A stretch of 63,562 nt of DNA, counting the filler, from Stramenopiles sp. TOSAG23-2 (lineage: Eukaryota), in assembly GCA_900128395.1 (NCBI GenBank). It is 13 parts of 13 records of this genome, joined end to end, with 100 filler letters (N's around TTAATTAATTAA, not from the genome) between each part and the next. Parts side by side here need not be neighbours in the genome. Positions count along the whole stretch, not along the records: positions 35,755 to 41,595 come from LT650577.1; 12 more parts are not named here. One strand, given 5' to 3'. Below the pieces are notes generated by a model. The model ran no database searches, had not been told where the DNA came from, and saw only the letters and a program-made list of their open reading frames with translations. Position numbers and translations under genes: made by a program. Of this stretch, positions 3,976 through 60,694 are shown piece after piece; position 1 is the first letter of the stretch, and the number at the start of each line of letters is the position of its first letter.

Positions 3976-4123
3976 GCACTAGCACAAATTCCCTTCGCAG
4001 AAAGAGTATCAATTCTAGTTTTATTGATAAAAAATCCCTCTAATAAAGTTTTAAGTGAAATATCAAAAAAATACGTCTTAGACTACAAAATTTATACTAC
4101 AATTCTATAACACCTCAAACACA

Positions 4124-4340
4124 AATATTTTTGCCAATTTTATTTTCATTTTTAAAAGTTCCGCCAAAATGGGTACGAAAATTGAGAAATTTAATGAGAT
4201 ATATAAAATTTGCATTATGTCTTCAAACATCGAATATTTTTGCCAATTTTATTTTCATTTTTAAAAGTTCCGCCAAAATGGGTACGAAAATTGAGAAATT
4301 TCATCAGATATATCAAATTTGCATTATGTCTCCAAACATC
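4124..4340. repeat. Two-copy ~109-bp tandem repeat
   Basis: AATATTTTTGCCAATTTTATTTTCATTTTTAAAAGTTCCGCCAAAATGGGTACG... occurs at 4124 and 4233 with a few substitutions. Confidence 0.9.
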
Positions 4341-14900: not shown

Positions 14901-17522
14901 GGTCTATATGCTAATGAAAATGCTGTAATAAAGCTAATATACAGCGAGTTTCTTAATAACGTAGCTGGGCGCCTTGCTATGACTAGGTTTACATCCTCCA
15001 ACACAGCATTAGTGTCGGTGAATGTATTATATAATAACATGTCTCAAAATGATTTTATTGGGCAAAATTTACCATCTTGCTCGATGTCAAGAAATCTTTG
15101 CTCGGAATTTCGATTAATTGGCATCTGTGAAGATGATCATTTTAACGTTGCTAGAGTTGGCATATGGTGTAAGACTCAATGTTATCCTCACTCGTATCAC
15201 ATTGGAAACGACGTAACTGCATTGAAAAATCGTATTTGTCAAAATTGTGTTGCTGAACATTATACTAACGAAACAAATATGTTGAGTTGTATACCTTGGA
15301 CTGTCTGTCCAGCGGGGACTTTTATCTATATCAATGGAACTGCAATATACGACAATACATGCAAAACCTGTTTGCATGGAAAATTTGCAAGAAATCATAG
15401 TCAATTTTATTGCCCTCCGTGGAAGACTTGTTTTCCTGGGCATTATATATCTACGAATGGTACAACGAAATCTGATCGCATTTGCACAAAATGCGCTGCA
15501 GGAATGTTTGCAGCAGATATGGATCAAATCTTGTGTAAATATTGCAAATTAGGAAAATACGCTGATGATACTGGTTTTACCATATGTAAAAATCGTACCG
15601 TATGTCAAATTGGAACATACATTTATAGACCATCAACCATATTTTATGATACAACATGTGAAAATTGTATCCAAGGGAGATATGCTGACAACCAGGACAT
15701 GCCGGTATGTAAGTATTGGTCGGTAATTTGTGGTCCAGGATTTTTTATAGCTATAGAGCCAAACCAAACCGCAGATACAGTCTGTGATTCATGCAAACCT
15801 GGATTTTACACAGATGGGGATAATTTCACAGAGTGCATTCCATATACCATTTGTTACACTGGGTATACGTTCAAAGGTAGTCCAACGGTAGATACAATTT
15901 GTAAAGCTTGCCCTGTATACCAAGTTAGATGGCCGAATGTGCCTACTGGAAAATGTTACTTATGTTCTGTATGGGGAAAATTTGCCTGTAGATGGCTGCA
16001 ATTTGCGGCGTTCCTCTTTCTAGGCATGAGCTTATTTTTAGCTTATAGTAAGGGGAAATATGTTGTTTATAAGTTGCAAATACATCTTGGTTTAAAGGCT
16101 AGGCCTCTGTATGCAGAGAAATTGAACCATACTAAAATTGTCCCGGAAAAATTAAAGCGTTACAAAGGTAGTAGAAATTTACTAAAAAATTTACCTAATA
16201 CATCTGCGGGGGGAATAATTAAAAATGCAGGAAACAATTTAACAAAAGTAGATCCGCAGAATAATCACGGACAAATGAAACGAACGGGTTTGAAAAAAAG
16301 TAAAAGAAGAGGAAAAAGGTCTTCCTCTAGGAATAGAAATCTTCTCCGCGGTATGGGTAATAATAAAATTGTCCCTGAAATAAATTTGGAACAAATGCGA
16401 AAAACGCGTAATGCAAATAATAGAAAAGGTTTAACTGGAAATAAAAACAGACTAGAAAAAAAAATGAATGTTGATCACATTGCCGCAAAAACTAAAATTT
16501 CCCCGATAAAAGAGCGGAAAATCAAACAAGCAAGGGACAAGCGCAAGGCTTTACTACAGTCATTTGCGGCTGTCAGTATCATAAAAAAACAAAAACAGAT
16601 AGAAAATAATACAGGAAAAGCCTCGAAAGTAACCTTGAAAAATGCTGCTGTTGGTTTAGTAATAAATCCTACTACAACACATTTACAAAAAAATCTTCCA
16701 GCATCGAATGATCTTAATGTAGAAAAAACGGCCACGCGTAGCATAAGTAAAAGCAAAGATGTTGCGAAGAAGAAAAAAACTGGCCAAAATGAAGGAAAGA
16801 AAGTAACCTTGAAAAATGCTGCTGTTGGTTTAGTAATAAATCCTACTACAACACATTTACAAAAAAATCTTCCAGCATCGAATGATCTTAATGTAGAAAA
16901 AACGGCCACGCGTAGCATAAGTAAAAGCAAGGATGTTGTGAAGAAGAAAAAAACTGGCCAAAATGAAGGAAATGCCAAAGTAACTACTGTAAAAGATACA
17001 AAAACAACAAACGACACTGCAATTGTTAAATCAAAAGGCGCAATAAAAATAAAAACACCCAAAAGAATGAAACTATTAAAGTTAAGAAATAAAGTAAAGC
17101 AAAAAAAGAAGAAAGATGCAAGCAACAAAAACGTGTTAGAAGAAAATGTTACTCGACTGATTCAACATGAAGCTATACAGCAATTTATGGGTATTGCCAA
17201 AACAAAAAGGGGAAAAATCACAAGTGGACAAAGTGGAGAAGAATTTAAAAAGAGCAAGGTGGGCGGATCTACCAAGAATGTAACATTACATTCCGAGGAT
17301 GTCAAAACTTTACACCAGATATTTAACGACCTGGATAAAAATAACAATGGGACATTAGAAAAAGGAGAATTTAGACGCGCTGCGCTAAGACGTCCTGATT
17401 TAGGAACTTTTGTTCGTCCAAAAGCTTTTTTAAATTCATTCACCGACATGGATACAAGCCATGATGGTAGTATTAGTCTTGATGAATTTGTTTCTTTTTG
17501 TATAAAATCAAAATACAAGTAA
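11938..17522 (+). CDS. Large type-I membrane protein: Pmp-like GGA(I)/FxxN beta-helix repeats, Cys-rich TNFR/GCC-like repeats, TM helix, basic tail, C-terminal EF-hand pair; probably 5'-partial
   Basis: The frame is open from the contig edge. It has many FxxNxA..GGA[IL] repeats, CxxCxxGxY repeats, a hydrophobic segment WLQFAAFLFLGMSLFLAY and EF loops DKNNNGTLEKGE and DTSHDGSISLDE. Confidence 0.85.
16626..16971 (+). repeat. In-frame 174-nt (58 aa) tandem duplication within the cytoplasmic tail
   Basis: KVTLKNAAVGLVINP...KKKKTGQNEG occurs twice. The copies differ by about 2 substitutions. Confidence 0.92.
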
Positions 17523-17897
17523 AATTTAGAAATGTATCCTTTTTAATGAGGATATTGACATACTACCACATGGTAGTGTGATTCTTTTGGAGAGTGTAGG
17601 AAATATTGTCATTGTGAGGTAAATTAAATAAAATAAATTATATATATGGTTGTGTAAATAATATTATATTTATGATCGTAATATATAATGATATAAAAAT
17701 AATTCCCTTAATTTTGATATATATTATACGATGGTTAAAATCTAAGTTATAATAATTTTACACTTCTCGTGTTACGTAATATGCTCAATACTCAATCNNN
17801 NNNNNNNNNNNNNNNNNNNNNNNNNNNNNNNNNNNNNNNNNTTAATTAATTAANNNNNNNNNNNNNNNNNNNNNNNNNNNNNNNNNNNNNNNNNNNN

Positions 17898-19235
17898 AAG
17901 TGCGTAAAATTGAGAATGGCGATGGTTTCATTATACTTGGTGTAAATTTGAAAGTATTATTACCGTTTACATTGTTCTTCGATTTAATATTACTTCTGAA
18001 ACGATTGTTACTATTGTTGTTGTTATTATTAGTAATGCTGTTATTATTATTAGCAAAAGTTAAAGCATACTCTTGAGCAGGTGTTTTAACAACAGAATTA
18101 AATAATGATGATTTCCTTCGTTGATTTAACTTAACACTACTTTTCTGGTGGTTACTATTTGCAACATTATTTTTATTACTATTATTATTATTGTTGTTAT
18201 TATTTTTATTACTATTATTATTATTTTGTTGCATATTTATATTCTGATTTTGTTGAATATTATCATTGTTGTTGTTGTTGTTGCTGCTGCTCTTATTGAT
18301 ATTATCATTTGGTACTAAATGTACAACACCTAATAATACTAATAGATCGGCACTTGTCTCAGCAAATATTGATAAGATCGGACCATAAAGTTCTTCTATC
18401 GACAAATCAGGCCCAGTTAGACGTCCATTTGTTAATGCATATTTATCCTTTTGGTTGGATAACGTATGACTAGATGGACTATTCATTAGGGGATAACTAC
18501 CACGATGTTCCAATGTATTTTTTTTGTTATTATTATGTTTACTTTGACTGCTGCTTGTTGCCCAGTTAGACGTCCATTTGTTAATGCATATTTATCCTTT
18601 TGGTTGGATAACGTATGACTAGATGGACTATTCATTAGGGGATAACTACCACGATGTTCCAATGTATTTTTTTTGTTATTATTATGTTTACTTTGACTGC
18701 TGCTTGTTTTCACAATTTTATTTTTCATATGCGATGGCCATTCTCCATGAATACTACTACTTTGGTTATTATTTTCTTTTCTAGCACGTTTCCGACTGCT
18801 ACCGCTAATATCATCACTAACATTACTAGTAACTTTTGAATTTGAAGAGGATGATTGCAACATCTCCTTCAAACGCTGATTTTCTTCTTGCATAAGGCGA
18901 CAGGAACGTTCTAGGGTTTTTCGCGCTTGCTCAGATCTATTTAGTTGTTGTTCTTTGAAATTTAAATTTGTTTGTGCAGCATTAATTTCCCTCTCTTTTT
19001 CTTTCTCTGCTACTTGTATACGATATGTAGTCTCGGTCTCCAATAAATTAATACTAAAGGCCAAATCTTCCGCTTCCCGTTGTTTATTTTCTAATAACAT
19101 TTTTAAATGTTCTATATTATTAGTCGTGTTATTATCATTTGCATTGGTAGAAGAAGAATGGTTATTATTATTATTTACATCTGACGATGCAACACTATTT
19201 GGTACCACATCATTGCTACTATTAATCACTTCCAT
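17898..19235 (-). CDS. Hypothetical coiled-coil / Asn-rich protein, 3'-truncated and split by a 149-nt duplication
   Basis: ORFs 18486..19235 and 17842..18513 become one frame when one copy of the 18411-18559 / 18560-18708 repeat is removed. Confidence 0.7.
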
Positions 19236-20350: not shown

Positions 20351-20791
20351 TAAAAATACTTTATATATATATTTTTGACCACGTAGAGCATATAGCATAT
20401 ATATTAGCTTAATTTATTATTAGTCCGCAAGTTAAAATTTTGAAAGTTGAAAGCAAAAGCAAAAAAGGAAGTTAGTATATCTGGGGCGCGATATAAAAAA
20501 TACTCGTACGAAGTAGTTTTTATACAAATTTTTTATTTTTAATATATCATATATTATTAATGCATATTTAAATTTAAAAAAAGTTTTTGCGCATCCTATA
20601 CACTTTAAACTTGAAGCAGACTTTTTCGCTCATATAATATGTGTTTTTAAGGCCAAACATAAAGATCACCTTTTTTTTTCAGCCTCCTTCCATGTATCAT
20701 ATCTCTTAACAAGTATTAGTGTTGTGTTTTTTCTATTTATAAGTCGTTCTATTATAAAAACAAATTTTTTTCCTTTCATTACTAATTTTGG

Positions 20792-22381
20792 TTACAACAT
20801 TTTTAACAATTGATATGGTTGCATTTGATCATTTTTTGCTATTCTCATCAATGAACGTCCAAATTTCATGATGTGTTTTAATGATTCTTTTGCTTGCATC
20901 AAATCAGCATCATCAGCAATTTTTACACGTATCAAAGATCTTAAATCAGTTGCATCACGTACTAATTTTCTTCTTAATGTATAAGTTAATAAACCATCAA
21001 GTTCGCTAGAACCAAACTCATTATTGTTATTTGCAGCTTGATCAGCAACGGAAGTTTTATTATTAAATGGTAATAAATATCGCGATAAAGTACCTTGTAA
21101 CATATTCAATTCTGATGCTGCTTTTTCCAAATCATTTAAAAAATTAAACCCACGAGATGCACGTTCTAATGTGACATGCAAATCATTTTCATTTCTAATA
21201 GGTTTACGTAATAGAAACATGATTTCTCCCCATAGTCGACTTAATCTTTCACGTGTATCTTTTTTTTTCGGCAGAAAAGTTCCTGCAGTTTTTTTTGTAG
21301 TTGCGCCATCATTACTGCTACTACTACCACTACTACTACTTTTTACTACATTGATATTATCAATCATTGTACCTGATGATCCTAATAAATTAGCAATTTC
21401 CGTTTTTTCATTAAATGTGCAACTTAATTTTCCACGTCCACCACGTCTTACACCTAAACGATCCGTAAATGCGGCAACTTGTTTTGGTGGTGCTTTTGGT
21501 TTGTTTTTAATTCTTGCACATACTTCAATATGCCGTTTAGATGCTTCCTTTGCAAATTTACGACTGCAATGTGGACATTGCACGCGTACCAATTGTTCTG
21601 ATGGCATATAAACAGCAGCTTGTTCCTCTTCCCATGTTGGTGCTCTTTCACGAGTCATGCTTGCATTTATAATATCAAAATTTTCATCAACATTTTGTTT
21701 CTGCAGACTATTATCATTATTACAATTGTAATTATTATTATTATCATTTATTCCTTCTAGCAAATTTCCATTGGCAACAACACTGGCACTATTGTTGTTG
21801 TTATGACTGGGTATTCTTTTTGGCGGTGGTGGTGGTGGTGAGGATGGTATTGTTTGCTTTTGATTTGTTATTGTTGTTGGATAACTAATGGTTGATAATG
21901 CACTCCGATTTTGTATTGTATTATTAACTTGTGGTGTTTGTCGTTTTGTAACAATAGATTTATTATCATCATTATTATTAATAATCATATTGTTTTTGTT
22001 ATTCATATCCGTTCTATTATTACCTTTGTTATTTGAGAAAACCTTGCCGTTCTCTTTGTTATTGTTATTATTATTATTCACGACAACATAATTATTTCTT
22101 TTTTGTTTATGATATTGTTGTCTTCGTACTATTTCTTTTTTTTGTGTGAAAATAGCGTTTGACGACATCACAGACATTGGGGAACCGTTTAATGTAATGG
22201 AACTTGAACGTCGTTTTAATAGCTTTGGATGTCTCCTTTTTAACAATTTTAATGCCTGTGCTGCAGATGATGGTCTTTGTTGTTTTGCGTGTTTCAAACG
22301 CATTGTTGAGGAAGAGGCTGAAGATGCCATGGTTTTGGAAGTGGAAGGTCGTTTTAACATGATGTTGGTTTGATTCAACAA
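20792..22381 (-). CDS. C2HC-type zinc-finger protein (ZC2HC1-like finger) with a low-complexity N-terminus
   Basis: CPHCSRKFAKEASKRHIEVC fits the zf-C2HC pattern. It is a 529-aa ORF with an uncertain start (TTG; first ATG 7 codons later). Confidence 0.75.
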   Translation of the reverse strand: MLNQTNIMLKRPSTSKTMASSASSSTMRLKHAKQQRPSSAAQALKLLKRRHPKLLKRRSSSITLNGSPMSVMSSNAIFTQKKEIVRRQQYHKQKRNNYVVVNNNNNNNKENGKVFSNNKGNNRTDMNNKNNMIINNNDDNKSIVTKRQTPQVNNTIQNRSALSTISYPTTITNQKQTIPSSPPPPPPKRIPSHNNNNSASVVANGNLLEGINDNNNNYNCNNDNSLQKQNVDENFDIINASMTRERAPTWEEEQAAVYMPSEQLVRVQCPHCSRKFAKEASKRHIEVCARIKNKPKAPPKQVAAFTDRLGVRRGGRGKLSCTFNEKTEIANLLGSSGTMIDNINVVKSSSSGSSSSNDGATTKKTAGTFLPKKKDTRERLSRLWGEIMFLLRKPIRNENDLHVTLERASRGFNFLNDLEKAASELNMLQGTLSRYLLPFNNKTSVADQAANNNNEFGSSELDGLLTYTLRRKLVRDATDLRSLIRVKIADDADLMQAKESLKHIMKFGRSLMRIAKNDQMQPYQLLKML

Positions 22382-23148
22382 AAAAATTAAAAAACAAAAA
22401 TTAAAAAATTTACAACAAAAACCTTCGATGCGTAGATAAAAAACGGTATTATATTCTAAATAAAATAAATAATAAGAGTCTTTATCAATCTCCTAATAGC
22501 CTGTACGTTATTCACTTGAATCGATCGACTTTCCACTCATGTGTTGATGCAAACACACACAATGTTTCGCACACATCTTTTTCATCTTTTTTTCAATTTT
22601 CAGACGACGACGAAGAAATATAACGACTTTTAATGCTATTACCTGCTAGCTTATACTCTCTACTATTACCGCGTGGTGTTATTAATACATACTGTACTGG
22701 CATACATACAGTGCTACCCAGGACCTAATCTAGATCTACCACACTGGTGGTTTAAGGTACAGTATTTCATGTAATATTATCCGCTATTATTACCAGGCCT
22801 TAGCAGGCCATTAGGAGGCGGCAGGTATTAAATTAAAAAACGGTGCAAACCAGCAAACTGGCAAACCGGCAAACAACTGCCATTTTTGTGTTGAGATAAT
22901 TTTTTGAAAGAGAAGATGATTTTTAATAATTTCAAAAACACGTTAAAAAACATAAAAAATTATTAGGATAAAGTATTATTTCAAAAAATTATAGTATGTA
23001 GTGCTAGTAGAAAATATTTCTTACCAATTGAGTTGCAAAAAAAAATAAATAACCATTTGTTTTGTTCAAAAATTAGTAGAAAAGTTATAATTTGTAAACA
23101 TTCAAGTAATAAGAGAGAAAAAAATAAAAGAGAGAAAGAAACATATCT

Positions 23149-29711: not shown

Positions 29712-30171
29712 NNNNNNNNNNNNNNNNNNNNNNNNNNNNNNNNNNNNNNNNNNNNTTAATTAATTAANNNNNNNNNNNNNNNNNNNNNNNNNNNNNNNNN
29801 NNNNNNNNNNNAGCATGGACACACGCCTTTCAACATTTTACACTTGAAAATTGTGTTTTTCTGCCACATTTTCAGTTTTTCATTTCCTATCATATTTATA
29901 CTTAATGTAGTCCTTTTCATATACTAAGTAGATTTGTAGTGTTTGATATATTTGATAGGTCAGATTAGGTATTTTTTGTACTTGAGAGTGCTTGATGAAA
30001 TAAAAATTTTTTTGCATTTTTTGATAGGAAGACTTTACCGGTATTTTATTTATATACTGTAATTTAAAGTAATAAGTAAAGGCAATCCAGCAATACCACC
30101 AGCCTTATTAGCAGGTGGTACTGTAGTACCTGTGGTACGCCAAAAAAACTATAAAAAAAATAAAAAAGTGC

Positions 30172-30398
30172 AAAAAAAAAAACACAAAAAAAAAAAAAAA
30201 AAAAAAATAATGATTAAATTAAAATAGCAACGCACCAACACATCGAATTCGAAGGGCTTTTTTATAACAGCTAAAAAAAATAAAAAAAAAAAAAAAAAAG
30301 GAAAAAAAAAAAACACAAAAAAAAAAAAAAAAAAAAAATAATAATGATTAAATTAAAATAGCAACGCACCAACACATCGAATTCGAAGGGCTTTTTTT
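30172..30398. repeat. Duplicated poly-A / TAATGATTAAATTAAAATAGCAACGCACCAACACATCGAATTCGAAGGGC segment upstream of the LYR gene
   Basis: The same ~55-nt unique sequence occurs at ~30208 and ~30341, flanked by similar A-tracts. The copies differ by one AAT unit. Confidence 0.85.
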
Positions 30399-33220: not shown

Positions 33221-33381
33221 TAAAACTACTAGTCTTGGTTTCTAATTATTATACTGATAATTCTTTGTTTTTGCATCTGTTATTATTTATTGTATATAAT
33301 TATAAATAAAACTACTAGTTTTGGTTTCTAATTACTATACTGATAATTCTTTGTTTTTGCATCTGTTATTATTTATTGTAT
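33221..33381. repeat. ~75-nt direct repeat (86-nt period)
   Basis: TAAAACTACTAGT[C/T]TTGGTTTCTAATTA[T/C]TATACTGATAATTC... occurs at 33221 and 33307 with two substitutions. Confidence 0.9.
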
Positions 33382-35438: not shown

Positions 35439-35756
35439 AATAGAGAATTACATTTTTTTTATTTAAATATTTTAAATATTAAAATATATCTCATAATAAT
35501 ATTATTAAATATTTTAAATTAATTAAAATAAAAAAATAAAAAATATTTTAAATAAAATATATAAAATATTGTGATAAATATTACGTATATAATTATATAA
35601 TTTACGCATAATTTATTGTTTTAATTTACTCATGATAATTCCTACTCTTCAAAANNNNNNNNNNNNNNNNNNNNNNNNNNNNNNNNNNNNNNNNNNNNTT
35701 AATTAATTAANNNNNNNNNNNNNNNNNNNNNNNNNNNNNNNNNNNNNNNNNNNNAT

Positions 35757-36233
35757 GGATCAAGTATATTAGATTTATTACGAAGTAGCTCTAGTAGTAG
35801 TAGTAGCAAGAAGGACATTATTGATGGTTCTGATGAAGGTTTTACTAGTAATGATGATGGTTTTACTACTACTACTACTACGACTACATCTTGGCGTCAA
35901 TGGATAGATTTAGAACATGATATATGTTACAATATAACAAATCATTGGAATGCATTGACGGATGGTAAAATGAAATATATATATCGTGCATATTTTGGTG
36001 ATGAACAATTATTTAATTTAACAAATGATCAATATGAAATGAATGATTTATCTAAAGATAATAAATATATTGATGTTTTAGAGATGTGGAGGAAACGATT
36101 AGTGCAGCAATTTGTAAATGAACAACGTGGTGTATCATGGGTCAATGATGAAGGTAAATTAATGAAACGTGTTCAAGGGATGTTGTATAGTCGGTATTAT
36201 CCTGCCGAGGAAAATCCTGCCGATCCTGCCTGA
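35757..36233 (+). CDS. Sulfatase family protein, C-terminal fragment (5'-truncated)
   Basis: The frame is open from the contig edge: WRQWIDLEH..CY...NHWNALTDGKMKYIY...GDEQLFNLTNDQYEMNDL...WRKRL, the arylsulfatase C-terminal pattern (LF[DN]LxxDPxExxDL-like). Confidence 0.75.
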   Translation, partial: GSSILDLLRSSSSSSSSKKDIIDGSDEGFTSNDDGFTTTTTTTTSWRQWIDLEHDICYNITNHWNALTDGKMKYIYRAYFGDEQLFNLTNDQYEMNDLSKDNKYIDVLEMWRKRLVQQFVNEQRGVSWVNDEGKLMKRVQGMLYSRYYPAEENPADPA

Positions 36234-36560
36234 AGTAGGTTGGTGGAACGAAGTAGAGAGGATCTGAGTGTATTTTTTTTTATATATATGCATATAATAC
36301 GAAGCTCGTAAATGATGGTTAAAATCTACGAGTCGTTCGTACGAAAGTTTTATACGAAGTCGTCGTAATAATTTTACACTTCTCGTGCTAAGTAATATGC
36401 TCAATACTCAATATTGCAAGAATAATATTCTATCCTACGTACGTACTACGAACGTACGAATATACGAAATTCGTATTAGTAAAGCTCTTAATGCACCTCT
36501 GCAAACTAATACGCATAAAATTAATAAAATAATATTATATTTTTTATTTTTTTTGAAAGA

Positions 36561-37926
36561 TCACTGTAATCCATAACGAAATCGACTTGCTTTAACACCT
36601 TTTATATTATTATCATCATCATCATTATCAAAATCCAATACAAACAATTTACCAGCATCTGGTTGTTCTTTCATCCATTTGTCCATTCCAACATCTAAAC
36701 GTAAACCACAATTAGCAGTTGTTACATATAATTGTTTCAAATTTTTTCCACCAAATGCACAACTTGTTACACGTTGTGATGGTATATTATATTTTTGTAT
36801 GATATTACCTTTTATTGGATCCAAACGTATCACACACCATCCATCCCACATAGCAATCCATAACATATCTTGATCATCAATAGTCATACCATCTGGATAT
36901 CCCATAAATTTTAATGTTGTTGTTGTTGTTGTAGATGATGATTGTTGTAGTTGTTGTTGATCATTGCCACCATCATCATTGCCATTGTCATCATTATTAC
37001 TAGGAAATGTATATACAATTCTACGATTTGATATTGTACCATTTGTACCATCAAAATCAAATGCATCAACATTCATAGTTGGTGTATCGAATCTTGATCA
37101 TCAATAGTCATACCATCTGGATATCCCATAAATTTTACTGTTGTTGGTGTTGTAGATGATGATTGTTGTTGTTGTTGATCATTGCCATCATCATCATTAT
37201 TACTAGGAAATGTATATACAATTCTACGATTTGATATTGTACCATTTGTACCATCAAAATCAAATGCATCAACATTCATAGTTGGTGTATCGATATAATA
37301 CATTGTTTTACCATCTTTAGTCCATACAATACCATTACTGACAGTTATGTTACTTAGATGTTTTTTACAAATGATATTATTATTGTTGTCATTGTTATCA
37401 TCACCTTCTATAAATTCAAAGGAATAAAGTCCACCAACTGGTCCATTGCAATTGATATCCATGGTGCCAGCCCATAATCTCCCTTGTGGATCACATTTAC
37501 CGTCGTTCCATCTATTATTTATTAAATGTCCTTCTGGATTACCATTTTTAAAACCATGAATGATACGTTTAGTCGCAATATCAACAATACATATACCTTT
37601 TGCAACAGCAGCAACAAGTTGATTTGATGTATATGGTACGACGGTACCAATGGTTTGTCGTAAATCAATATGAATATTTTCATTGGTATGTTGATCATCA
37701 TATATAAAGATTTTACCCCTTGTTATATCAATCCATAATAATTTATTAGTGATTGGACAATATACAGCACCTTCACCAAGGGAACGTGGATCATTCACGG
37801 CTATTATTATATTGGTGTTGTTGGAAAGAAGATATTAGTGATTGGACAATATACAGCACCTTCACCAAGGGAACGTGGATCATTCACAGCTATTATTATA
37901 TTGGTGTTGTTGGAAAGAAGATTCAT
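36561..37926 (-). CDS. RGN: SMP-30/gluconolactonase/regucalcin family protein, broken by two tandem duplications
   Basis: Motifs LGEGAVY, LLWIDI, RWNDGKCDPQGRLWAGTM, SNGIVW, GYPDGMTID, VTSCAFGG and LYVTTA. Removing the 89-nt and 203-nt extra copies gives one frame from ATG 37926. Confidence 0.9.
36867..37293. repeat. Tandem duplication (36867-37090, 224 nt; 37091-37293, 203 nt) differing in microsatellite lengths
   Basis: Identical flanks enclose differing CAA/GAT/ACA repeat counts. Confidence 0.92.
37745..37922. repeat. 89-nt tandem duplication with one substitution
   Basis: ATTAGTGATTGGACAATATACAGCACC...GGAAAGAAGAT occurs at 37745 and 37834. Confidence 0.92.
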
Positions 37927-38234: not shown

Positions 38235-41200
38235 TTACTCGTTACCAGTTGCGCTACCCGTTGCACTTCCAGTTTCAGCGCCATCCACCACACCAGTTGC
38301 ACCTCCCGTCGAAGTACTCAACTTCTCAAGCACACCGATGTCCTTCTTCGCCACCTTCTCCATGGCCTCCATGTCAATGGCACCGCCCGTCGATGAAGAC
38401 CCGATTTCTTTGGTCTTACCAAAGGTAATACTAGTTGCTCCGCTTGCGCCTGTACTTCCACTTGCGCCTGTACTTCCACTAGCGCCAGTACTTCCACTAC
38501 CGCTTGCGCCAGTAATTCCGCTTGCGCCTGTTACTTTAACTCCGCTTGCGCCGCTTGAGCCTGTAACTCCTGTTTTACCATTTGCACCAGTATTGCCAAC
38601 GCTTGTTGTAGGTCCATCTAAAACAGCTGCACCAACACTTCCTGTGCTGGTGCTTCCACGTCCAATACCAGTACTCCCTGTACTTCCTGTACTTCTAGTA
38701 CCTCCCGTACTTCCAGTACCTCCAGTTGTGCCACTTGCCCCAGTGATACCACTAGCCCCAGTACTTCCACTAAGACCAGTGGCGAAATCGCCAAGGTCCC
38801 CTTCCAGCTGCTCCTTTGCAGCAGCAACTTTTTGCACATATGCCGCCGCATCACCATCGTCCTCTTCTGCAACACTTCCCGTTGCCTCCACAACAGCCGT
38901 TGCTGTTTCCTTCCGTTGCGGCTTCTTCATCTTGGCCAGCAACTCATCAAGCACTGCCTGTGCTTTCCCAACCTCCTCCACTGCCACGTCAACCTCCTCC
39001 TGGGAAGCACCTCCAAGCTTCTTGGATGCTTTCTTGGCAAGAACAGCATCCTCAGCTTCTTTAAGGGCCAGCTTAGCATCTCGAAGAGCTTGAGCATCAC
39101 TAACCCCTGTCGGCCCAGTCACCCCCGTTGGGCCTGTCACCGGCCCAGGGCCGGTATAGTCATTTAATGACTCTGCCCCTGTTGGTCCAGTCTTTGCAAC
39201 ACCAGTTGCACCAGACTCCGCCCCCGTTTCTGCGCCCGTCTCCGCCCCCGTCTCCGCCCCAGTACCACTAGTACCGCCTGTACTAGCTGTACCACTTAGT
39301 CCTGTTGGACTTAGCCCAGTTGCGCCACTTGCACCACCACCAGTTGACGCCGCACCAATCATACTTCCTAGATTGATGCCAGTAGCTGCCTTCGCCTTGG
39401 CCAGCCTACTGTCCAAGGAAGGATCACCGGAGCCTTCCTCCGGCTCCTCCTTTGCGGCAGCTACGATCTTCGTGATCATAGCTGGGCCAGTGGAAGCAAT
39501 TCCAGTGCTTCCACTCGCCGATCCAGTACTTCCAGTGGATCCGCTTGCGCCAGTACTTCCTGTACTTCCCGTACTTCCCGTACCGCCTGTGGACAAACCA
39601 AATAGGCCAGCAACTCCTTCCACCTTTGCCGCCTCAGCAGCTTTCCTCTTTGCTGCTTCCTCCACCTTGGCTGCCTTCCTCTCCGCAGCCGCCAATCGTT
39701 CAATTGCTGCTTTTCTAGCCTTTTCCTCTGCCAAACTTTCCAAACGTTGACGTTCTAAGTCACGTGCCATCTCCGCCTCCTTCTTCCTTCGTGCTGCAAT
39801 CTTCTTCATCATTGCTACCAGCCTTTTCCCCCCAAGCCGTTTCAATGCTAACAATTTCTTCTTCATCGCCTTCATTTGCGCCTTTAGCGTCTTTAAGTAC
39901 TCGGCCATATCCATCATATGACTTTTCCTCCGTGCCACTTTCAAGTCCGCCTCTTCCACCTCCTTCTGCGCCTTCCTCTTCGCATCCTCCGCGGCAGACG
40001 TGGCATCGGTACCATTACTCCTATCCCCAACCACCCTAGGATCTGGCATTGGATCCCCATGACCCATCAAATACGCTTGTTCTTTCTTCCTCCTCAGAAC
40101 CTTACGTTTCTCGTCCATGTCCTTCGTAGCTAGAACAACTAACGCATCCGCCTTTGCTTGCTCTTCGTGAGCCATTGCAATATCCGCCTTCCCAACACCA
40201 GGCATTTTACTAATTTTCATCAACCTCGCATTGCAAATCTCCAACCTCTCCGTAGCTGTACTCAAACCTTCCAACGCCACTTTAAAATCATCTTCCGCCA
40301 TTTGCCATTGCAATGTTGCACGAAGACGACGCAATTTATCACCTGCATGTGATTTTAACGCATATTTGCCCATGCCTAAACGTTCACTATGCTCCTTCAC
40401 CGCCTTTTCAATCTTCTCATGCTTCAATGCATGTGCTGCATGTTGCTTCACATTCTCCGAATGAACACTTTGCAATTCTTTCACCTCCTCCACCACTTTT
40501 GCCCTTCTACCTTCTAAATTGCTAATATCAATACCAGCACGATTTGCCTCCGTATTAATATTATCCAGATTCGAAACCAAAACCCGCACTTCTTCATTCG
40601 CTTCCTTCAACGTCGCCTTCGCGGCCTCCACAACAAATTTAGCATCAACCCCAGCATCAGCCCCAGCTTTCGCCATCTCCGCTTCCGCTTTACTAAGTGC
40701 CTTCTGTGCAGCAACTACCTTTCTTTTGGCACTACGTAACTTCGCCATTACAACAACTTTATTCGCTTCGAAACTTTTTAATTTTAAACGTAATTTACCT
40801 AAATCAACATCCAATTCTTTCCCTTCCTTGTCTAATAAATCAAGTTTCTTTTTACTTTCAATTGCATTGGTTTCCGCTTCAATTAATTTACCATGAGACA
40901 TTTTAAATACAGTTACTAACTTGCTAAATTCACCTTCACTACCATCTTTTAAAACGTCGACTCCACCTGTCAAATCATTCATCGTTTTCAAAACTTGTTG
41001 TGTGTATTCTTGTGCTTTCTCCTTCGCTACACGAATCTTACCATTTAATTTCAACCTATTTGCTTTTAATTGTTTCACATCTTTCACCGCTTTATTATAT
41101 TCCACGCGCGCCATTTGCATAGGTGACATGCCTACATCAATACCAAATGTTAATGCTTTACTTGCATCGTTGAAATTAACTTTAGCAATTAATAAAGCTT

Positions 41201-41595
41201 TTTCCGCTTCAATTAATTTTTGACGTAATGTTGCCAATAATTTTTTACCAGCTAACGTTATATTACGTAATTTTGCTTTTGCTTTTTCCACTTCCACATT
41301 ATCATATTCTGAATATGGGATGGATTCGTTATTACGAACATGTGGTTGTTTTGGTACAGGATGTGTTGGTACGACGCCGGCTTTTACCATTTTCTTTTTA
41401 TTATTATTAATATTCGTAACACCACCACCAAGTTCTAACAATAAAAAGGATGCTTTTTTCGTCTCTTCTTCATCTTCTAAACCCATATCTTTACTAAATT
41501 TTTTCACATATGGTTCATATTCATCTAAACGAAAACCTAAACCTTCTTTCGGCATATCATATGAATTTGTTTCTGTAAGCGTGTTGTAATGCTGC
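38235..41595 (-). CDS. Long coiled-coil protein with Gly-X-Y (GST/GAT/GPT) triplet repeats; probably 5'-truncated
   Basis: The frame is open to the contig edge beyond ATG 41555. It has ~550 aa of A/K/E heptads, then several G-x-[TS] triplet runs. GC content is visibly higher than in neighbouring genes. Confidence 0.8.
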
Positions 41596-41750: not shown

Positions 41751-42193
41751 CTTCTTGGAAGTCGTCGACTCGACGTGTTTTGAATGAAAAATAAATTGAA
41801 TTATTGACTGATGACTCTCTATATAATACTAATACAAATGATCAACAAATATATCAAATCGAATAATTTTAAAACAACATATATATATATATATATATAG
41901 ATAGATACAATATTTAATAAACGTACTTATATATATAAATTTGTGGGAAAAAAATCAACAAAAGTAACTTTTTTTTTTCTTTATAATAAACAACAACATC
42001 ATCAAATTTTAAAATTATTCAATAATATTTATTATTTTAGTCAATTATTAATAAAATTAGTAAAAAAAAAGAAAGCAAAAACACAATCATAATATAGATA
42101 GTGTACATATTAAGTGTGTGTATAAATATATATAAACAAACGAACACACACACATACGAACATACGCAACCATCTATATAATAGAAACAAAAT

Positions 42194-45100
42194 ATGAGTA
42201 GACAAAAACGTCTACCACGTGCAAGTATTTTTGATACACTTGTAAATGGTTTTTTTTCATCATCAAGTCAAGTAGATAAGATAGAAGTTGATGATAATAA
42301 TAATAATAATAATAATAAAAATAACAACAATAAAAATAAAAACAACGTATCATCCTCCAAAATGCCAACAATAACATTATCAAGTGGAAATAAAAAATCA
42401 TCCACATCTCGACGTCATACCATTGCATTATCTAATTCAAAACAGCCACCACGTAAATCATTTTCACCTGAACATATAACACATAAATCAGTGAAAAATG
42501 TTAAAACATCAGATGTTGATATGCAAGCAATAACTGATAGGTTATTATGTATGGGAAGACCATGGGAAAATCGTACCTCAAAAGAAAGCCGACGGAACAA
42601 TGTATACGATATAAGTGCCGTTTTAAATAAACGTTATGATGATCTATATTTAGTATTTAATTTATCAAATGGTAGAGTATATCCATTGAAACCATTTAAT
42701 TACCAAGTCTTACAATTTGAACCAGAACGAAGTATGGATATTGATAAAATGGGTTGTCCATCCTTAGAAGAAATTTTTAATGTATGTTATGCAATTAAAT
42801 TTTGGTTAAACTTAAATTATAGTAACATCGCAGTATTGCATTGTGACAATGGAGTAAGGCGTACGAAATTATTTGCTGCATGTTATTTGCTTTTTAGTGG
42901 CGAATGCAAAACAATGGATGAAGCATTATTATTATTTTATCGTAAACGTTTACGAAAACCAAATTATACCATGTTAGATGTATTAAAACATATGTCTTCA
43001 AGTGCAAAGCAAGTTACACAACATTTTGCACGAATTCATGATTTAAAAGGCGGTTTACCAAATAGAAAACCATTAGTATTAAGAAGTATATTGATTCATA
43101 ATTTACCAACAGATTTTGAGGATCAAGTTGCACCATATATTGAATTGTATGAAGGACATCGTAAAATTTTTAGTAGTCAAGATGAAATCGATGCATTAAT
43201 ACATTGGGAGGAAAATGGTTCAAATTGTGTAATACAACCATACACAACAGATGATGATGGGGAACATGAACCATTAGTAGTCCATGGGGAGATATTATTA
43301 GTATGTTATAGCTCTACAGCAACATCGTTGGAACATGAATCGTTTGAACGGCCTATTTTTCAATATAGATTTCATACATCGTTTTTAGAAGTTGGCGTAG
43401 TTGATTTAGATCATCAAGCAATTGATATATTATATAAAAAAAGTGAATATGCTGCTCAACAATTTAAATTGCAATTAATATTACATCAATGTCCACCGGA
43501 AAACATGCCATTGCGATCAAGGCTTGTTGGTGCTAATTTAGGATTGACGGGTGCACATGCGAATTATAATGGACTTGCTTGCATTACGCAAACACATGGT
43601 GTTATTGCTGATCAAACAATTCATGAAAAATTAATGAACATGGGATATATGAACCAAGCAGTTGTATTAGCATGTCAACGATCGGATAATGATTATGAGA
43701 AAGCACATGAAATATTAGAGGATATTCATCGTCAAATAGAAAAAGATCTAAATATTGTAAAAAATAAAACTCCAAAACGTGGTGGTAATATTAATAGTAG
43801 TAGCAGTAGTAGTAGTAGTAGTAATGGTGGTGGTGGTGGTGGTGGTACAAGAGGTAGTGGGCATGCAGCAATATTAGATATGTCACCAACTACAAATTTA
43901 CGACGTGAAATTCATTACGATACAAATTTAATACGTATGACACCAAATAAAACACCTGATCAAAGTAATAATAATAATAATAAACAAAACGACAATAACA
44001 ATAATAATAACAATACTCAAGATACCCTTGATGTACGACGAACCTTGTCATTTGAAGAGAAACAAAAATACAATGATAAATTATTTGAACAATGGACACA
44101 AGTATTTGAAAATTTAAATGGTTTCAATGTGAATAAACCATGGATTGTTGTTTTGTATCGCCATGATATTGACGATCACGCAGTTCTATATAGTTTAACG
44201 CATTGTGATAAAAATCAAACAGTAACAGTGGAACCTGCGCAAACAACATTTACATATCAAGCAGAACATAGTGTAGTATGGGATTTAACTAGCAGTGAGA
44301 TTAACGACGATACTGGTAACCGTGGTGGTAATAGTAACAACAATAACAAGCATCATCCTAGAGGATATGCAAACCATGAATGGTTATGCATGGTCCAATC
44401 AGAAATTAGCTCATTTGTCTTAAGACGACTTTCCATGGATTTAATAGATTACAATGCTAGACATTATAGACGCACGTTATCATTGGATCAATCCAGGCAA
44501 TTACAAAATAACATCATGAATTATAAAAATAAACGATGGAATGTTACACAACGAAAAGGGGCGGGAAATAACACAAATGGTTCATCCAGTAATTTATTAG
44601 AAAATAAACAAATGGTATTTATAAATTTAGAAACAAAACAAGCGTTTTCCCCAACAATACGATCTGGGGAATTTTCAATACCCAACAACAAAAGATTAAT
44701 TTTATTGAGACAAATTATGTATAACTATTTAGATGCAAATATGTTAATTAAAATAATTACAAATGGGCATGAAGAGGCGAATATTACCGATAATATATCT
44801 GGGAATACTATTGCTTCATCATTAGCCCTTGCAATTCAAGCTGCTACTGGTAATACTGGCGGTGCATTGAATGTTGCACAAATTTTGGAAGACGGTGCAG
44901 AAATTGTAATTCGAAAATCTGGCTCCAATGCTAGAACTAATAATAATAATAATAATAACAACAACAACAATAGTATTAATACCTCAGGCGCTACTACTAA
45001 AAAAAAAACACCTGTTATATTTGGTGCAGGAGGTAGAAGTGCTACCCAAGCAACACCAATGGCAATGCCATCGAGGAATAATAATAATTATGACCAGGAA

Positions 45101-47535
45101 ATGAACCAATTAAAAAACCACGGTGAAAAAAGGTATAGCCGGAATAGAAATGCACAAACAGTTGATGAAAATGATTTGCACCATTTAATGTCTGTAATGA
45201 AGACCAAAGTGAAACGAAATGTATCAACAACAAAGAAGACACGGAATCAACGAATACGGGAAGCATTAGATGGTAAAACAAATCCAAGTGGAAGTTCTGG
45301 TGGTAATGGTTTTATCAATACCAGCATTGAAAATAATGGCAAATTGTCGTCTATAGAAGAGTATAACGATGATAATGGTATCACTACAGATAATAATGAT
45401 CGTTTCCCTGTATTTCCAGGTTTTACTAAAAAAGGAAAACTACGCCAACCAGCATCAGGTAATAGTGGGTATAATAATCCAGTTGGTGCAAATATGCCAT
45501 CAGGTAATGGAAATGGTTCTGGCCCAGGATGGGGTGGTGATGGAACAGTTGATCATGGATTAGGACCAGGTTGGGGGCGTGGAAATGGTAATGGAAAAGG
45601 ACCAGGATTTGGTGGTGGAGGAGGAAATGGGAATGGTTCTGGCCCAGGATGGGGTGGTGATGGATCAGTTGATCATGGATTAGGACCAGGTTGGGGGCGT
45701 GGAAATGGAAATGGCAGTGGGCCAGGATATGGTAGAGGAGGAGGACCTGGAAATGGTAGTGGAAGTGGTGGGGGTAATGGTAATTTTTACCAAGGTAATA
45801 ACGATCGTAGTGGTATGGTCCCACCCCCACCTCCCCCCCCAGAACCACCAGCGCCTCCACCACCTCCACCACCAGAGAAAGAGGATCCACAACAAGCATT
45901 GATGAATGCTATAAAGAACAAAGGAAAAGGTACATCACCATCGAGCAATTTATTGTCAAAAGAACAAAATGAAAAATATGCAAAAATGAAAAAAATGGGT
46001 CTTCCAGAAGGTGCAATTAGACATAAGATGATGCAAGATGGAATATCAAATGAGGGAATTGAATCATTTTTCAATCAAGTCAGTGGAGAAACCATTAATG
46101 ATGGAAAAAATGCGAAAAAAATAGAAAATCCAAAACTTACGAAATATATAAAAATGAAAAAGATGGGATTACCAGATGGTGCTATTCGGCATAAAATGAT
46201 GCAAGATGGCATTTCCGATGATTTAATGAATGAATTTTTCAATAGTGGAAATACCATCATGAAATCAAAACCAGTCAAGAAAGAACCAAAGGAGGAGAAA
46301 TTACCACCGTTAGATGAAAAAATTGTTGGTAAATATCGTAAAATGAAGAAAATGGGCTTACCAGATGGTGCAATACAACATAAAATGGTACAAGATGGCA
46401 TTGACCAGGCAATTATTAACCAATTTTTTAACATTAAAACGGCAAAAAATAAGTCCAAGATCGATATAAACAATCCAATATTTGATCCATATAAAAAGAT
46501 GAAGAAAGCCGGGTTGCCACCACCAGTTATTAAACATAAAATGACGATGGATGGCCGCACACAGGAAGAAATCCAAGCGTTCTTTGGTGAAAATGCAACG
46601 ATGACAAAAGAGCGAGCTGCCTTGATTGCTAAGAAGAAACAAGAAAGCAAATTTAAAAAATTACATTGGCAAACGTTGGATGAATCGAAATTAGAAAATA
46701 GTGTTTGGGCGACGAAAATGGATGACGAGGATGACGAAGATGAATTAGATTTAGAAAATTTGAAATCATTATTTGGCAACAGTCCAAAAAACAAGAAGAA
46801 AAAGAAGAAACGAATGTCACAAATGTCAAAAGGAGAAATTGAAGCAGCTAATAAAAATAAAAAGAATGTCCGTTTATTGGATTCAAAACGTGCATACAAC
46901 GTCGAGATCTCTTTAAGTAACGAATGTCACAAATGTCAAAAGGAGAAATTGAAGCAGCTAATAAAAATAAAAAGAATGTCCGTTTATTGGATTCAAAACG
47001 TGCATACAACGTCGAGATCTCTTTAAGTAAATTTCGTAAATTTGAATCCTATGAAGCTATTGGAGATGCTATTGAAAATTCAGATAATCGCTTAGATCTT
47101 GATATGTATATATTATTAAAGAAAATTTATCCAACTTCGACAGAGACGACGGTGTTAAAGCGGTATCGTGGGGAAGTACAATCCCTTGGAAAGGCGGAGC
47201 AATTTCAATTGGCAATGCTACGCGTGCCAAGGTGCTTGGAAAAAATAGATTGTTCCTTATTTTGCGTTGAGTTTCCACAATTAATTGATGAGTTGAATGC
47301 AAAAATGGATTTATTAATCAAGACTAGTGATGCTATAGTAAAATGTGATCCGCTAGTCAATGTATTGAAAAAAGTCTTAAAAGTTGGAAATACGATGAAT
47401 CAAGGCACTCGCAGTGGTGGTGCAAAAGGATTTACATTAGACTCATTATCCAAATTATCTACAACAAAAGGTGCAGATAAAAAGACGACGGTATTAGATG
47501 TTGTTGTTGCTATGATATTTAAAAAAACGCTTAGC
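42194..47535 (+). CDS. Formin with N-terminal PTEN-like phosphatase + C2 domains, Gly-rich repeat, FH1, four KMKKMGLP repeats and FH2; 3'-truncated, frameshifted by a 110-nt duplication
   Basis: PTEN-like ITDRLLCMG, YLVFNLS and VLHCDNGVRRT; C2-like PYIELY..FQYRFHTSF; poly-Pro FH1; FH2 motifs KKLHWQ, LLDSKRAYNVEISL and VLKVGNTMNQGT..GGAKGFTLDSLSKL. Removing 46811-46920 joins the two ORFs in frame. Confidence 0.93.
45503..45735 (+). repeat. In-frame 120-nt Gly-rich repeat (GNGNGSGPGWGGDGxVDHGLGPGWGRG) x2
   Basis: Two copies with several substitutions, immediately upstream of FH1. Confidence 0.85.
46811..47030. repeat. Exact 110-nt tandem duplication inside FH2
   Basis: CGAATGTCACAAATG...CTCTTTAAGTAA occurs at 46811-46920 and 46921-47030. 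Confidence 0.95.
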
Positions 47536-47804
47536 NNNNNNNNNNNNNNNNNNNNNNNNNNNNNNNNNNNNNNNNNNNNTTAATTAATTAANNNNNNNNN
47601 NNNNNNNNNNNNNNNNNNNNNNNNNNNNNNNNNNNCAGCAAAGAAGGAAGACGTAATAATGGTAACCGTCATGTGCAAATACAAGAAATGCAAGAACAGC
47701 AACGACCTTCATCTAGGCATAGTTTTCAAAATTACATTTCGAGTGATCGGTAGAGAGGGTGTTTACGCACATAATTTATTTTTTAATTTACTCATAATAA
47801 AAAT

Positions 47805-52799: not shown

Positions 52800-54153
52800 T
52801 TTAAAGTAATATTTTTAAATTAATGCTATAAATCACAAGTCAATATTTAAAAAAAAAATAATAATAACGTTTTATAGATCAACCACTTGCAATAGTACAA
52901 ATACGTTATTAATTACCGTCTTTTTTTAAATGCGTGTGTCGCTTCACAATAAATGTCTTGATTGTATCAACCTATTTTTTCGTAAACAATATATATATCT
53001 TTTTCGTAATATCTGTGTATACATAAATCTATTCATTTTTATATTTTTTTCGATTCCGTTGGACAGTATTTTATTACTGTATTATTATTTTTATGCACGT
53101 GTTTTTCGTGTGGCATGTGGGCATGGGTTTCGCTGCCATACTGTACAGGTATACGAATAGCATACCACCAGTAGCGGGGTTTCCTGAGTAGGCATGGGTG
53201 AAATTAAAAGAATTATATCCAAAAAAAGGGTTTTAGACTCCTATATTTCCATGTTAAATAAGTCAATACAGTGATGCGTATTTGTACGAACCAATATTTC
53301 CCGATCATATCAAACTAGTCACCAGTCACCAGTCACAGAGATTTTCCTTGTGCCAGTATACTGGCCATCATACTTTAATATATACCATACGCACGCATAC
53401 ACACTTCACAAATTCCACAATTGACATAATTTCTCTAATACTTTTGGATGCAACATTTCCTGTACAGATACTTNNNNNNNNNNNNNNNNNNNNNNNNNNN
53501 NNNNNNNNNNNNNNNNNTTAATTAATTAANNNNNNNNNNNNNNNNNNNNNNNNNNNNNNNNNNNNNNNNNNNNATGAACGACTGATATGGTATCGACTGA
53601 TATGGTATATCTATGTTAAATTTCAGCCCGTAACAATTTAGTTTTTTGACTCCTTAAAGAAGTGGATAGTTGATGTACACATTTACAACAAAAAATATAA
53701 AAAATAAAAATTTATTATACAAATATATATATATAGAATTAATGCCAATAAAATATATAGAGAGCTCCATCTGCCGTCTTCGATGAGATAGATATGAATG
53801 TTTGTTGGCTTGGTCGCACTATTTTATTCATTGAAGAGTAGGAATTGTGTACACGAGTAGAAAATAAAGAAAGTTAAAATACGCGTACATTTTTAGTATA
53901 TAAATTATTTTAGTATATATATATATATATGATATATATATATAAGGAGTTAGGATTTAATATTGCACTTGATTGCCTCCTTCTTGTATCTTGTAGGGAT
54001 TGCAAATAACAGGGGTACGATACAACCAAAAGGAAAGAATTGGGAGAGAGAGGGGGGGGAAGCTATTCAATTTGAACGAAAATAGGTTGTCTTTGTATAT
54101 TTAGTGACGATACGATAACCTATATATTGGAAAAAAACAATCAAATACGAAAA

Positions 54154-59405: not shown

Positions 59406-59848
59406 NNNNNNNNNNNNNNNNNNNNNNNNNNNNNNNNNNNNNNNNNNNNTTAATTAATTAANNNNNNNNNNNNNNNNNNNNNNNNNNNNNNNNNNNNNNN
59501 NNNNNCTTTTTTGATAAAAAAATACGAAGCTTCGTAAAAAATAAATCTTGGGTGAAAACATTTTTTTTTTGTCTTTTTTTTTTGAAGAAATATTTTTGTA
59601 AAAATTGTTTTTTTTTATTTTTTAAAAACACACACTCTCACTACCACCACACACGTTTAGAACAAACACACACTAGATACTCTAGATGCATCTATAAATA
59701 ATACGCAATCTCACTCTACAACACACATTTAGAAACGTACAACCTCATAGTTTCCTTTGTTTACTCCCAATAAAGAACTACGTGTTCTAAAAAAAAACAC
59801 ACATATATCTAAAAACACTCACCCCTCTTCCCCCTTCTTGGAGTTCTT

Positions 59849-60694
59849 TTACGTATACACATATATAAACAACATGATGCAAAAAGTAATAGTTAAAAAC
59901 AATATCATACATAAATAACCATTGTTATTTGTTTTTAATAATTTTTGCATTCCAACTTGTAATTGTCCAAATCTACCATTAAATGTATCGACATCTTCAC
60001 TAAATTCATTTAATAAACGATTTTGTTCATCTAATTCTGTACCAATATCTATTGCCATGGAATGTATATTACTAACACCTTGATCTAATGTATCAATCAC
60101 TTCATCTTGTTCAGCAAATATACGTTCTTTATCTTTTTCTTGCATTTGTACAAATTCACGATTACCTTCTTGATATTTATTACTATTAATACCACCTACG
60201 TGTGGATCATTGTTTTTTTTTCGTCCCATTAATATTAAACGTTTATCTTTCTCAATCTTACCTAATGTATCCTGAGAACGCATTTTTTCTTTTAATTGCC
60301 TTACAGTATGTCGTGTTTTTGCTATGTATTTTTTACGTGAATTTAATTCATTATCATCAATATATGCAAATTTTTTACGTTGTTTTTCTACTGTTTTAAT
60401 AGCAATACGTTCTAGTTCATTTAATTCACGTATGATACCATCGACGTCACGAAATAAGGAACGATTTACTTTTTTAAATTCACGATTGGTTGCTGTATTT
60501 GTTGTTTTTAATAAATTATCCCATATATTAAATTTTTGTCTGGTTTGTTTCACACGTGTATCTAATTCACCTTTAAATGCATAAAATGGATCTTGTCCAC
60601 CTATCGAACCTTGTGATGCTATTAATGGTCTTGTATCCATTTTATTGTTATTATTATTGTTGTTGTTATTATTTCGATGATAATTGTTGTTCAT
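59849..60694 (-). CDS. STX6: Syntaxin-6/SYP61/Tlg1-like Qc-SNARE
   Basis: N-terminal DPFY..K, ELNSRKKYI, SNARE motif EQDEVIDTL...IGTELDEQNRLL and a C-terminal TM anchor. Confidence 0.9.
   Translation of the reverse strand: MNNNYHRNNNNNNNNNNKMDTRPLIASQGSIGGQDPFYAFKGELDTRVKQTRQKFNIWDNLLKTTNTATNREFKKVNRSLFRDVDGIIRELNELERIAIKTVEKQRKKFAYIDDNELNSRKKYIAKTRHTVRQLKEKMRSQDTLGKIEKDKRLILMGRKKNNDPHVGGINSNKYQEGNREFVQMQEKDKERIFAEQDEVIDTLDQGVSNIHSMAIDIGTELDEQNRLLNEFSEDVDTFNGRFGQLQVGMQKLLKTNNNGYLCMILFLTITFCIMLFIYVYT

Follow-up and report, generated by a model that had tools for sequence, protein, structure and literature searches.

What kind of element is the short palindromic motif TACGAA-N0-3-TTCGTA that accumulates in the spacer at 36234-36560 of the genome of Stramenopiles sp. 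TOSAG23-2? A first-pass annotation had noticed it in spacers behind genes on unlinked contigs and had read it as a lineage-specific 3'-end signal, either a dimeric DNA-binding or termination site, an RNA hairpin for 3' processing, or a CpG-methylation or nucleosome-positioning element. We addressed this question in a stretch of 63,562 nucleotides, here called the window. As annotated, it consists of separate contigs, 13 in total (ten of ~5.85 kb and three of ~1.29 kb), which are joined by N44-TTAATTAATTAA-N44 spacers. The GC content of the window is ~32%, and its long ORFs carry eukaryotic domains, namely SHMT, PTEN-C2/formin, adenylate cyclase, EF-hands, and SMP-30. The contig at 35755-41595, which contains the spacer in question, is present in public marine metagenomes and metatranscriptomes as well as in two coded organisms. 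For further analysis it was covered with contigs of the RNA runs X2, X5, and X17 (poly(A)) and of the DNA metagenome X3.

Some features of the window stand apart from the motif. The SMP-30-like gene next to the spacer contains a duplication of ~200 nt, with identical 32-mers at 37021 and 37224, which splits it into the ORFs 36561-37097 and 37073-37834, while in a DNA metagenome contig the 224 nt in between are missing and 36866 is followed directly by 37091. Six near-exact tandem duplications of about two copies each (period 86-174 nt, identity 92-100%) were found at 4115-4341, 16625-16972, 18411-18708, 30142-30397, 33221-33381, and 37744-37922; like the duplication in the SMP-30-like gene, they may be amplification or assembly artefacts of a single-cell genome. 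On the minus strand at 38235-41594 lies an ORF of 1119 aa with ~50% GC, compared to 32% for the genome, and with repeats of 9, 18, and 27 nt. It matched no Pfam family, and RNA contigs from X2, X5, and X17 all cover it. The long ORF at 42185-47583 combines a PTEN-type C2 domain, a UBA domain, a proline-rich part, and a formin FH2 domain, which we take to be the PTEN-formin layout found in plants and some protists.

The palindromes themselves are real and far too frequent for chance. Exact TACGAA-N0-3-TTCGTA occurs at 7296, 7345, 36463, and 59523, and TACGAAGCTCGTA, annotated as a variant one base short, was found at 36298. Over the whole window, 100 dinucleotide shuffles gave a mean of 0.01 against the four palindromes observed, and none of them reached four. 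To count the single words, stop-to-stop ORFs of at least 120 aa were masked, which left 27 non-coding intervals with a total length of 13.2 kb. These intervals hold 31 TACGAA/TTCGTA, compared to 7.7 +/- 2.7 in 500 dinucleotide shuffles with a largest value of 16. The words are also clustered: the densest 200 bp of non-coding DNA contain 8 of them versus at most 3 in shuffles, and 28 pairs lie no more than 60 bp apart versus 4.2 expected. Per kb, the window has 2.29 of them outside coding DNA versus 0.74 within it, and TACGAA is the sole complex, non-microsatellite word of many copies that clusters in this way there.

Most of the focal spacer consists of a single copy of a dispersed repeat, here called R. 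The copy (copy B, 36312-36512, plus strand) fills most of the convergent spacer, is truncated on its right side, and is interrupted by two TACGA blocks; the two-sided unit TACGAAGCTCGTA (36298-36310) lies immediately upstream of its left end. Block 1 (36327-36367) sits at two TA sites of R and reads TA-CGAGTCGTTCG-TA-CGA..., then TA-CGAAGTCGTCG-TA. It is missing from the R copy of contig 3 and from the RNA contigs, and the uninterrupted form is evident from loose ends at 36328 and 36366. Block 2 (36437-36475) is a TA-delimited array of CG, CG, CGAACG, CGAA, and CGAAATTCG that contains the exact palindrome 36463-36475; copies without it are indicated by X3 joints that lead from 36436/36439 to 36489 and by an X5 loose end at 36438. 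The second copy of R in the window (17730-17797, plus strand) is cut by the end of contig 3 and has no TACGA inserts. It represents the 'before' state for 36312-36412, with 95.7% identity over 47 nt between 36366-36412 and 17750-17796.

To find further copies, metagenome contigs were scanned with the 32-nt core of R, which yielded 64 loci (designated L) comprising 205.7 kb, with many matches at contig ends. Similarity of copy B to the copies in L002 and L055 extends to 36512. The left end of R is fixed and the truncation of its right end is variable, the longest copies reaching ~540-570 nt past the core and up to ~600 nt. An ORF terminates on the opposite strand, and its full relatives measure 361-437 aa. 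The encoded protein (relatives P0001-P0003, 414-437 aa) fell into no Pfam family, not even at E <= 1, and a protein atlas search gave it no named look-alike. R looks like a 5'-truncated retroposed element, perhaps a retroposon tail. A tRNA-derived SINE was considered as well and found no support, as a tRNA search of six long R copies returned 0 genes; the R core had 0 matches in viral contigs. In X3, the summed depth is 2488 in the bin 36340-36534 and 3-30 in the neighbouring bins, and it reaches 13,968 at 36389, all values being sums over contigs and not copy numbers. The summed depth of R in this marine DNA metagenome is about thousand-fold that of the flanking genes. Among the RNA contigs listed, none runs from a gene into the spacer.

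R lies mainly behind genes. Spacers with a 3' gene end harbour 61 of 66 copies (24 convergent, 34 between a 3' end and a contig end, 3 tandem), usually oriented like the upstream gene, and the neighbours are ordinary host genes. Several of these loci are composite: in L016/L017, L051, and L061, R is nested or lies head-to-head with an inverted partial R in the same spacer. In L056, R is followed by a tandem array with a unit of ~14 nt that contains ACGAAGAGTA, and L025, L054, and L023 share other stretches of 24-32 nt starting with TACGAC or TACGAG, which might form one more small repeat family. The stretch 35546-35654, with which contig 6 ends, shows an 83% match to L063 (2720-2825), ~200-300 nt from the R copy of that locus, and may be a second dispersed repeat at which assemblies break.

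For a before/after comparison, the 66 R copies, which are paralogous copies and not alleles, were aligned to their consensus. In the well-aligned left part of R, all CG-bearing inserts were found at TA sites, giving TA-X-TA, and by our reading of the alignment all but CGAA in L025 and CGA in copy B (16 of the 18 inserted pieces) are bounded by TA on either side. The inserts comprise TA-CTCG-TA in L013, TA-TTCG-TA in L056, TA-CGAAAACG-TA in L042, TA-CG-TA in L049, TA-CGAAG-TA in both L025 and L064, CGAAG twice together with CGAG in L043, and in copy B CGAGTCGTTCG, CGAAGTCGTCG, CG, CG, CGAACG, CGAA, and CGAAATTCG. In addition, L047 has TA-CGAG-TA within the R core. The TA sites that bear inserts in copy B, L013, L025, L042, L043, L056, and L064 are uninterrupted in 17730-17797, in most metagenome copies, and in the RNA and DNA contigs, again as paralogous copies and not as alleles. 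The inserted letters do not repeat the sequence next to them. Judged from these aligned copies, the comparison demonstrates that TACGA units originate by insertion at TA sites. Furthermore, since isolated inserts lack similar neighbouring sequence, they were not created by slippage, by which arrays may nevertheless be expanded. The idea that all copies of the motif belong to one decayed transposon family is not supported either: the clusters are alike only in the motif and in A/T runs, and the sole real repeat, R (36312-36512, 17730-17797), carries its TACGA units as later inserts.

The inserted vocabulary is restricted. The piece X has CGA at its start or TCG at its end (CG, CGA, CGAA, CGAG, CGAAG, and the complements TTCG, CTCG, CTTCG), and the two-sided forms (CGAA-S-TTCG, CGAG-CTCG) are the palindromes of the first-pass annotation. 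We split the spacers at TA, after the redundant loci L017, L027, L061, and L062 had been dropped from piece and word counts. In 32.8 kb of 3' spacers, with the R core set aside, the commonest CpG-bearing pieces between TAs were CG (20), CGAG (14), and CGAA (12), followed by CGAAG (12), CGA (11), and CGAACTTCG (5), whereas CGAG, CGAAG, and CGAACTTCG were absent (0 each) from 27.4 kb of 5' spacers. Likewise, 3' spacers contain TACGAGTA 14 times versus 1.13 expected and TACGAAGTA 12 times versus 0.40 expected, with one occurrence each in 5' spacers. Both are the top outliers of all TA-N4-TA and TA-N5-TA words, and their contexts are unrelated. Distinct units of the form TACGA-N1-9-TCGTA number 27 as listed (17 from the loci, 10 from the window). 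Their modal spacing is N3, half-site spacing overall varies from 0 to 9 nt, and TACGAA-S-TTCGTA was seen five times among the units listed.

Neutral insertion scars are the most likely explanation of these findings, and we give a probability of about one half to the reading that the TACGAA/TTCGTA words are parts of short transposon insertion scars and not a signal. Both the transposon as maker of the scars and their neutrality are what we infer; a donor element was not seen. In this scenario, a TA-targeting cut-and-paste transposon of the Tc1/mariner type would excise and leave a few letters at a TA that becomes duplicated, resulting in TA-X-TA, with X corresponding to the element's first or last few letters. 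Repeated visits to one TA-rich spacer, each scar creating new TAs, would generate arrays. Two-sided forms would have retained both element ends, and CGAA-S-TTCG would fit two 5-letter overhangs joined via one central base.

Excision scars of TA-targeting elements are already a known kind of sequence. The Minos ends begin with CGAG, and a Minos footprint would read TA-CGAG-TA. As described in two articles on Tc1/mariner excision, the cut in the non-transferred strand falls a few nucleotides within the element, and after repair by end joining its first or last 2-4 letters remain flanked by the duplicated TA, e.g., TACAGTA/TACTGTA for Sleeping Beauty (PMC6943129, PMC2874221). A third article gives 6 bp for the Minos footprint (PMC10992017). 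The units described here resemble the footprints of Sleeping Beauty and Minos in the duplicated TA around few letters and in the occurrence of both orientations. The complementary one-sided pairs CGAAG/CTTCG and CGAG/CTCG correspond to CAG/CTG in Sleeping Beauty, and the vocabulary is nested (CG, CGA, CGAA, CGAAG) as in Tc1/mariner footprints. However, three differences are evident. Compared to the canonical 2-4 letters, the pieces reach 5 letters if one-sided and 9-11 if two-sided. In addition, the scars are stacked, with up to 11 half-sites in 180 bp (36298-36475). Finally, neither donor element nor transposase was seen in ~270 kb. What is unusual is the stacking of such scars into an over-represented palindromic gene-end word that is common to relatives, with no donor in sight.

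The search for a donor covered the window and the 64 loci (~270 kb). Inverted repeats with TACGA ends of credible length were not found there, the best candidates being 8-10 nt exact or 16-19 nt with mismatches and mostly spanning coding DNA, and a scan of window and loci detected no common sequence after TACGA. None of 100 ORFs of at least 188 aa from the loci (of 106 listed with at least 180 aa) belongs to a transposase or reverse-transcriptase family, and no DDE transposase was found in 14 large ORFs of the window, both sets being a small sample of the genome. Three further observations argue against scars. The 11 half-sites in 180 bp at 36298-36475 would require that a single place was visited many times; direct-repeat arrays, e.g., the four TACGAA in 48 nt at 61223-61270, go beyond a simple footprint and call for secondary slippage; and CGAAC pieces are not derivable from a perfectly symmetric element end.

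Any explanation has to account for the position of the units behind genes. Relative to the ORFs of the window, the sites indeed lie where they had been annotated, downstream of stop codons and mostly between convergent genes. Per non-coding interval, half-sites (TACGA/TCGTA) number 10 in 6914-7528, 11 in 36231-36563, and 7 in 60892-61672. Dense half-sites had been claimed for four areas, of which 7100-7360, 36298-36475, and 61060-61270 hold, while the one near 20500 consists of one compound unit only, TACTCGTA overlapping TACGAAGTA (20501-20515), ~280 nt past the stop of the minus-strand ORF 20792-22492. The first cluster comprises TACGACGTTCGTA with a subsequent overlapping TACGAG (7109-7124), a lone TACGAA on the plus strand (7238-7243, as TA-CGAAC-TA), TACGAATTCGTA (7296-7307), and TACGAAGCGTTCGTA (7345-7359); an identical 15-mer occurs as reverse complement in L057. 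The last cluster comprises TACGAACTCGGTACTCGTA (61063-61081), a lone TACGAA on the plus strand (61171-61176), and four TACGAA in 48 nt plus TACGTA (61223-61270). This array lies ~65-110 nt past the stop of a minus-strand ankyrin-type gene, as judged from the sequence and its relatives in L036 and L009. Outside the clusters, TACGAAGCTTCGTA (59523-59536) is located ~310 nt past the stop of the minus-strand ORF 59849-60697, and the lone unit TACTTCGTA (TA-CTTCG-TA, 9791-9799, minus strand) in a tandem spacer. Four TACGAA at 52815-53473, scattered across 300 bp upstream of a gene, were not counted as a cluster.

The same bias recurs by intergenic class in the 64 independently assembled metagenome loci, where ORFs of at least 150 aa served as gene proxies. 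The density of TACGAA/TTCGTA there is 1.43 per kb outside coding DNA and 0.57 per kb within it. Convergent (3'/3') spacers show 2.85 per kb (26 spacers, 14.0 kb) and spacers between a 3' end and a contig end 1.64 per kb (37 spacers). The values are 0.46 per kb for tandem (3'/5') spacers (11), 0.52 per kb for divergent (5'/5') spacers (10), and 0.51 per kb for spacers between a 5' end and a contig end (39). Thus, of the proposed lineage-specific 3'-end signal, the recurrence across the lineage and the strong 3'/convergent bias stand, whereas a function as signal is unsupported. Strict units are held by 15 of 28 convergent, 13 of 39 3'/end, 4 of 14 tandem, 2 of 10 divergent, and 3 of 46 5'/end spacers, so that about half of the 3' spacers lack them. 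Furthermore, neither strand is preferred with respect to the upstream gene (17 sense TACGAA, 20 sense TTCGTA), and the words lie anywhere between 18 and 1418 nt behind the stop codon, without any fixed distance. Together with the insertion origin, this speaks against a function in 3'-end formation or termination. TA dinucleotides are equally frequent in 3' and 5' spacers (126-143 per kb), and consequently the supply of targets is not the cause of the gene-end bias. This leaves two possibilities: only the DNA behind genes tolerates insertions, as for R, or the units are retained there. Since TA targets are equal on both sides and R has the same bias, the bias may reflect insertion tolerance. 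In terms of the scar reading, scars would build up behind genes, chiefly between convergent genes, where insertions would be tolerated.

One rival reading is that the units are sites for a sequence-specific DNA-binding protein, e.g., a roadblock terminator or insulator for convergent transcription, and possibly co-opted scars. We regard this as possible, albeit doubtful. It is favoured by a density four- to fivefold higher in 3'/convergent spacers than the chance level found in 5' spacers and coding DNA, a bias which the supply of TA targets leaves unexplained, and by sites that cluster in either orientation, as DNA-level sites would. A further point in its favour comes from the homologous gene flanks of window contig 12 and L036, the one pair compared, with 83-89% identity in the adjoining coding DNA (11-17% divergence). 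TACGA words occur at matching places in both flanks, which could reflect constraint, and the arrays differ: one TACGA...TCGTA unit of L036 matches the place of the array at 61223-61270, while the position aligned to the lone TACGAA at 61171 reads TACGTT. However, 13 of the 28 convergent spacers and 26 of the 39 3'/end spacers have no unit, and units are rare in tandem spacers, where termination is likewise needed. In addition, a half-site spacing of 0-9 nt is ill-suited to a dimer. The sites also arise as templated-looking insertions with TA duplication and not by substitution, the unrelated repeat R has the same location bias, and no binding protein is known. Among the papers listed for the motif, none seemed, judging by titles and the opening lines of abstracts, to deal with a eukaryotic element of this sort.

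Roadblock terminators of the Reb1, Nsi1, and TTF-I type, which act on RNA polymerase II and I, are defined sites bound by a known protein. The TACGA units are similar insofar as they are short DNA words behind genes that occur in either orientation and may cluster. They differ in their absence from about half of the 3' spacers, in their free spacing, and in their origin as insertions. One might speculate that the units, whatever their origin, are nevertheless used by the cell, with clusters in convergent spacers docking a protein that would stop or insulate converging transcription, i.e., a lineage-specific code seeded by transposon scars. We consider this unlikely.

A further alternative requires no mobile element at all. 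The arrays might be cryptically simple sequence, with seed words amplified by replication slippage and palindromes formed by fold-back template switching. Such a process would fit the periods of 4, 8, and 11 reported by Tandem Repeats Finder at 36435-36468, the direct arrays at 61223-61270, the TACGAGTACGAGTA of L005 that adjoins a native GAGTA, and the many AT-only slippage inserts in the same AT-rich part of R. It nevertheless appears improbable as the source of the units: isolated single units (L013, L056, L042, L025, L064, L047) have no adjacent template, the same few words occur at unlinked loci and in independently assembled relatives, and the TA duplication as well as the restricted vocabulary are left unexplained.

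Much less can be said for hairpins in RNA that would direct 3'-end processing or polyadenylation, a reading we consider highly improbable. The units do sit behind stop codons, and palindromic 3'-end hairpin signals exist elsewhere: the mimivirus 'hairpin rule' describes long, gene-specific palindromic hairpins at nearly every gene end. The likeness consists in palindromes between genes in AT-rich DNA. In contrast, the stramenopile genome has one short shared word at part of its gene ends, with weak stems (arms of 5-6 nt, loops of 0-3 nt) and no excess folding energy. The spacer folds no better than its shuffles on either strand (z = -1.02 on the plus and -1.17 on the minus strand), Rfam returned 0 matches at the gathering score and only chance-level ones (E > 1) for 36200-36600, most words are single half-sites, strand bias is absent, and the units are not universal.

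Finally, the units might be CpG-methylation or nucleosome-positioning elements of AT-rich spacers, to which the share of TACGAA among the non-coding NNCGNN contexts counted in the window (31 of 264) would lend some weight, yet this seems very unlikely, as nothing in the sequence points to phasing and CpG is not depleted overall (observed/expected 0.91). The surrounding DNA had been rightly described as AT-rich, whereas CpG-poor was overstated, with 20 CpG per kb in non-coding and 28 in coding DNA of the window. Heat-shock-factor (GAA-nn-TTC) and STAT-type sites, taken with their customary spacings, were rejected because the spacing between GAA and TTC varies from 0 to 3.

Taken together, the restricted vocabulary, the insertion at TA sites, and the resemblance to Tc1/mariner footprints argue for scars. 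For motif discovery this implies a caution, as a word that is enriched, palindromic, specific to gene ends, and shared among relatives need not be a signal. Were the units bound by a protein after all, they would constitute a new terminator or insulator element. If, as we prefer, they are scars, the motif records past visits of an otherwise unseen TA-targeting jumping gene, and the convergent spacers of this compact genome would have been heavily used as a dumping ground for insertions.
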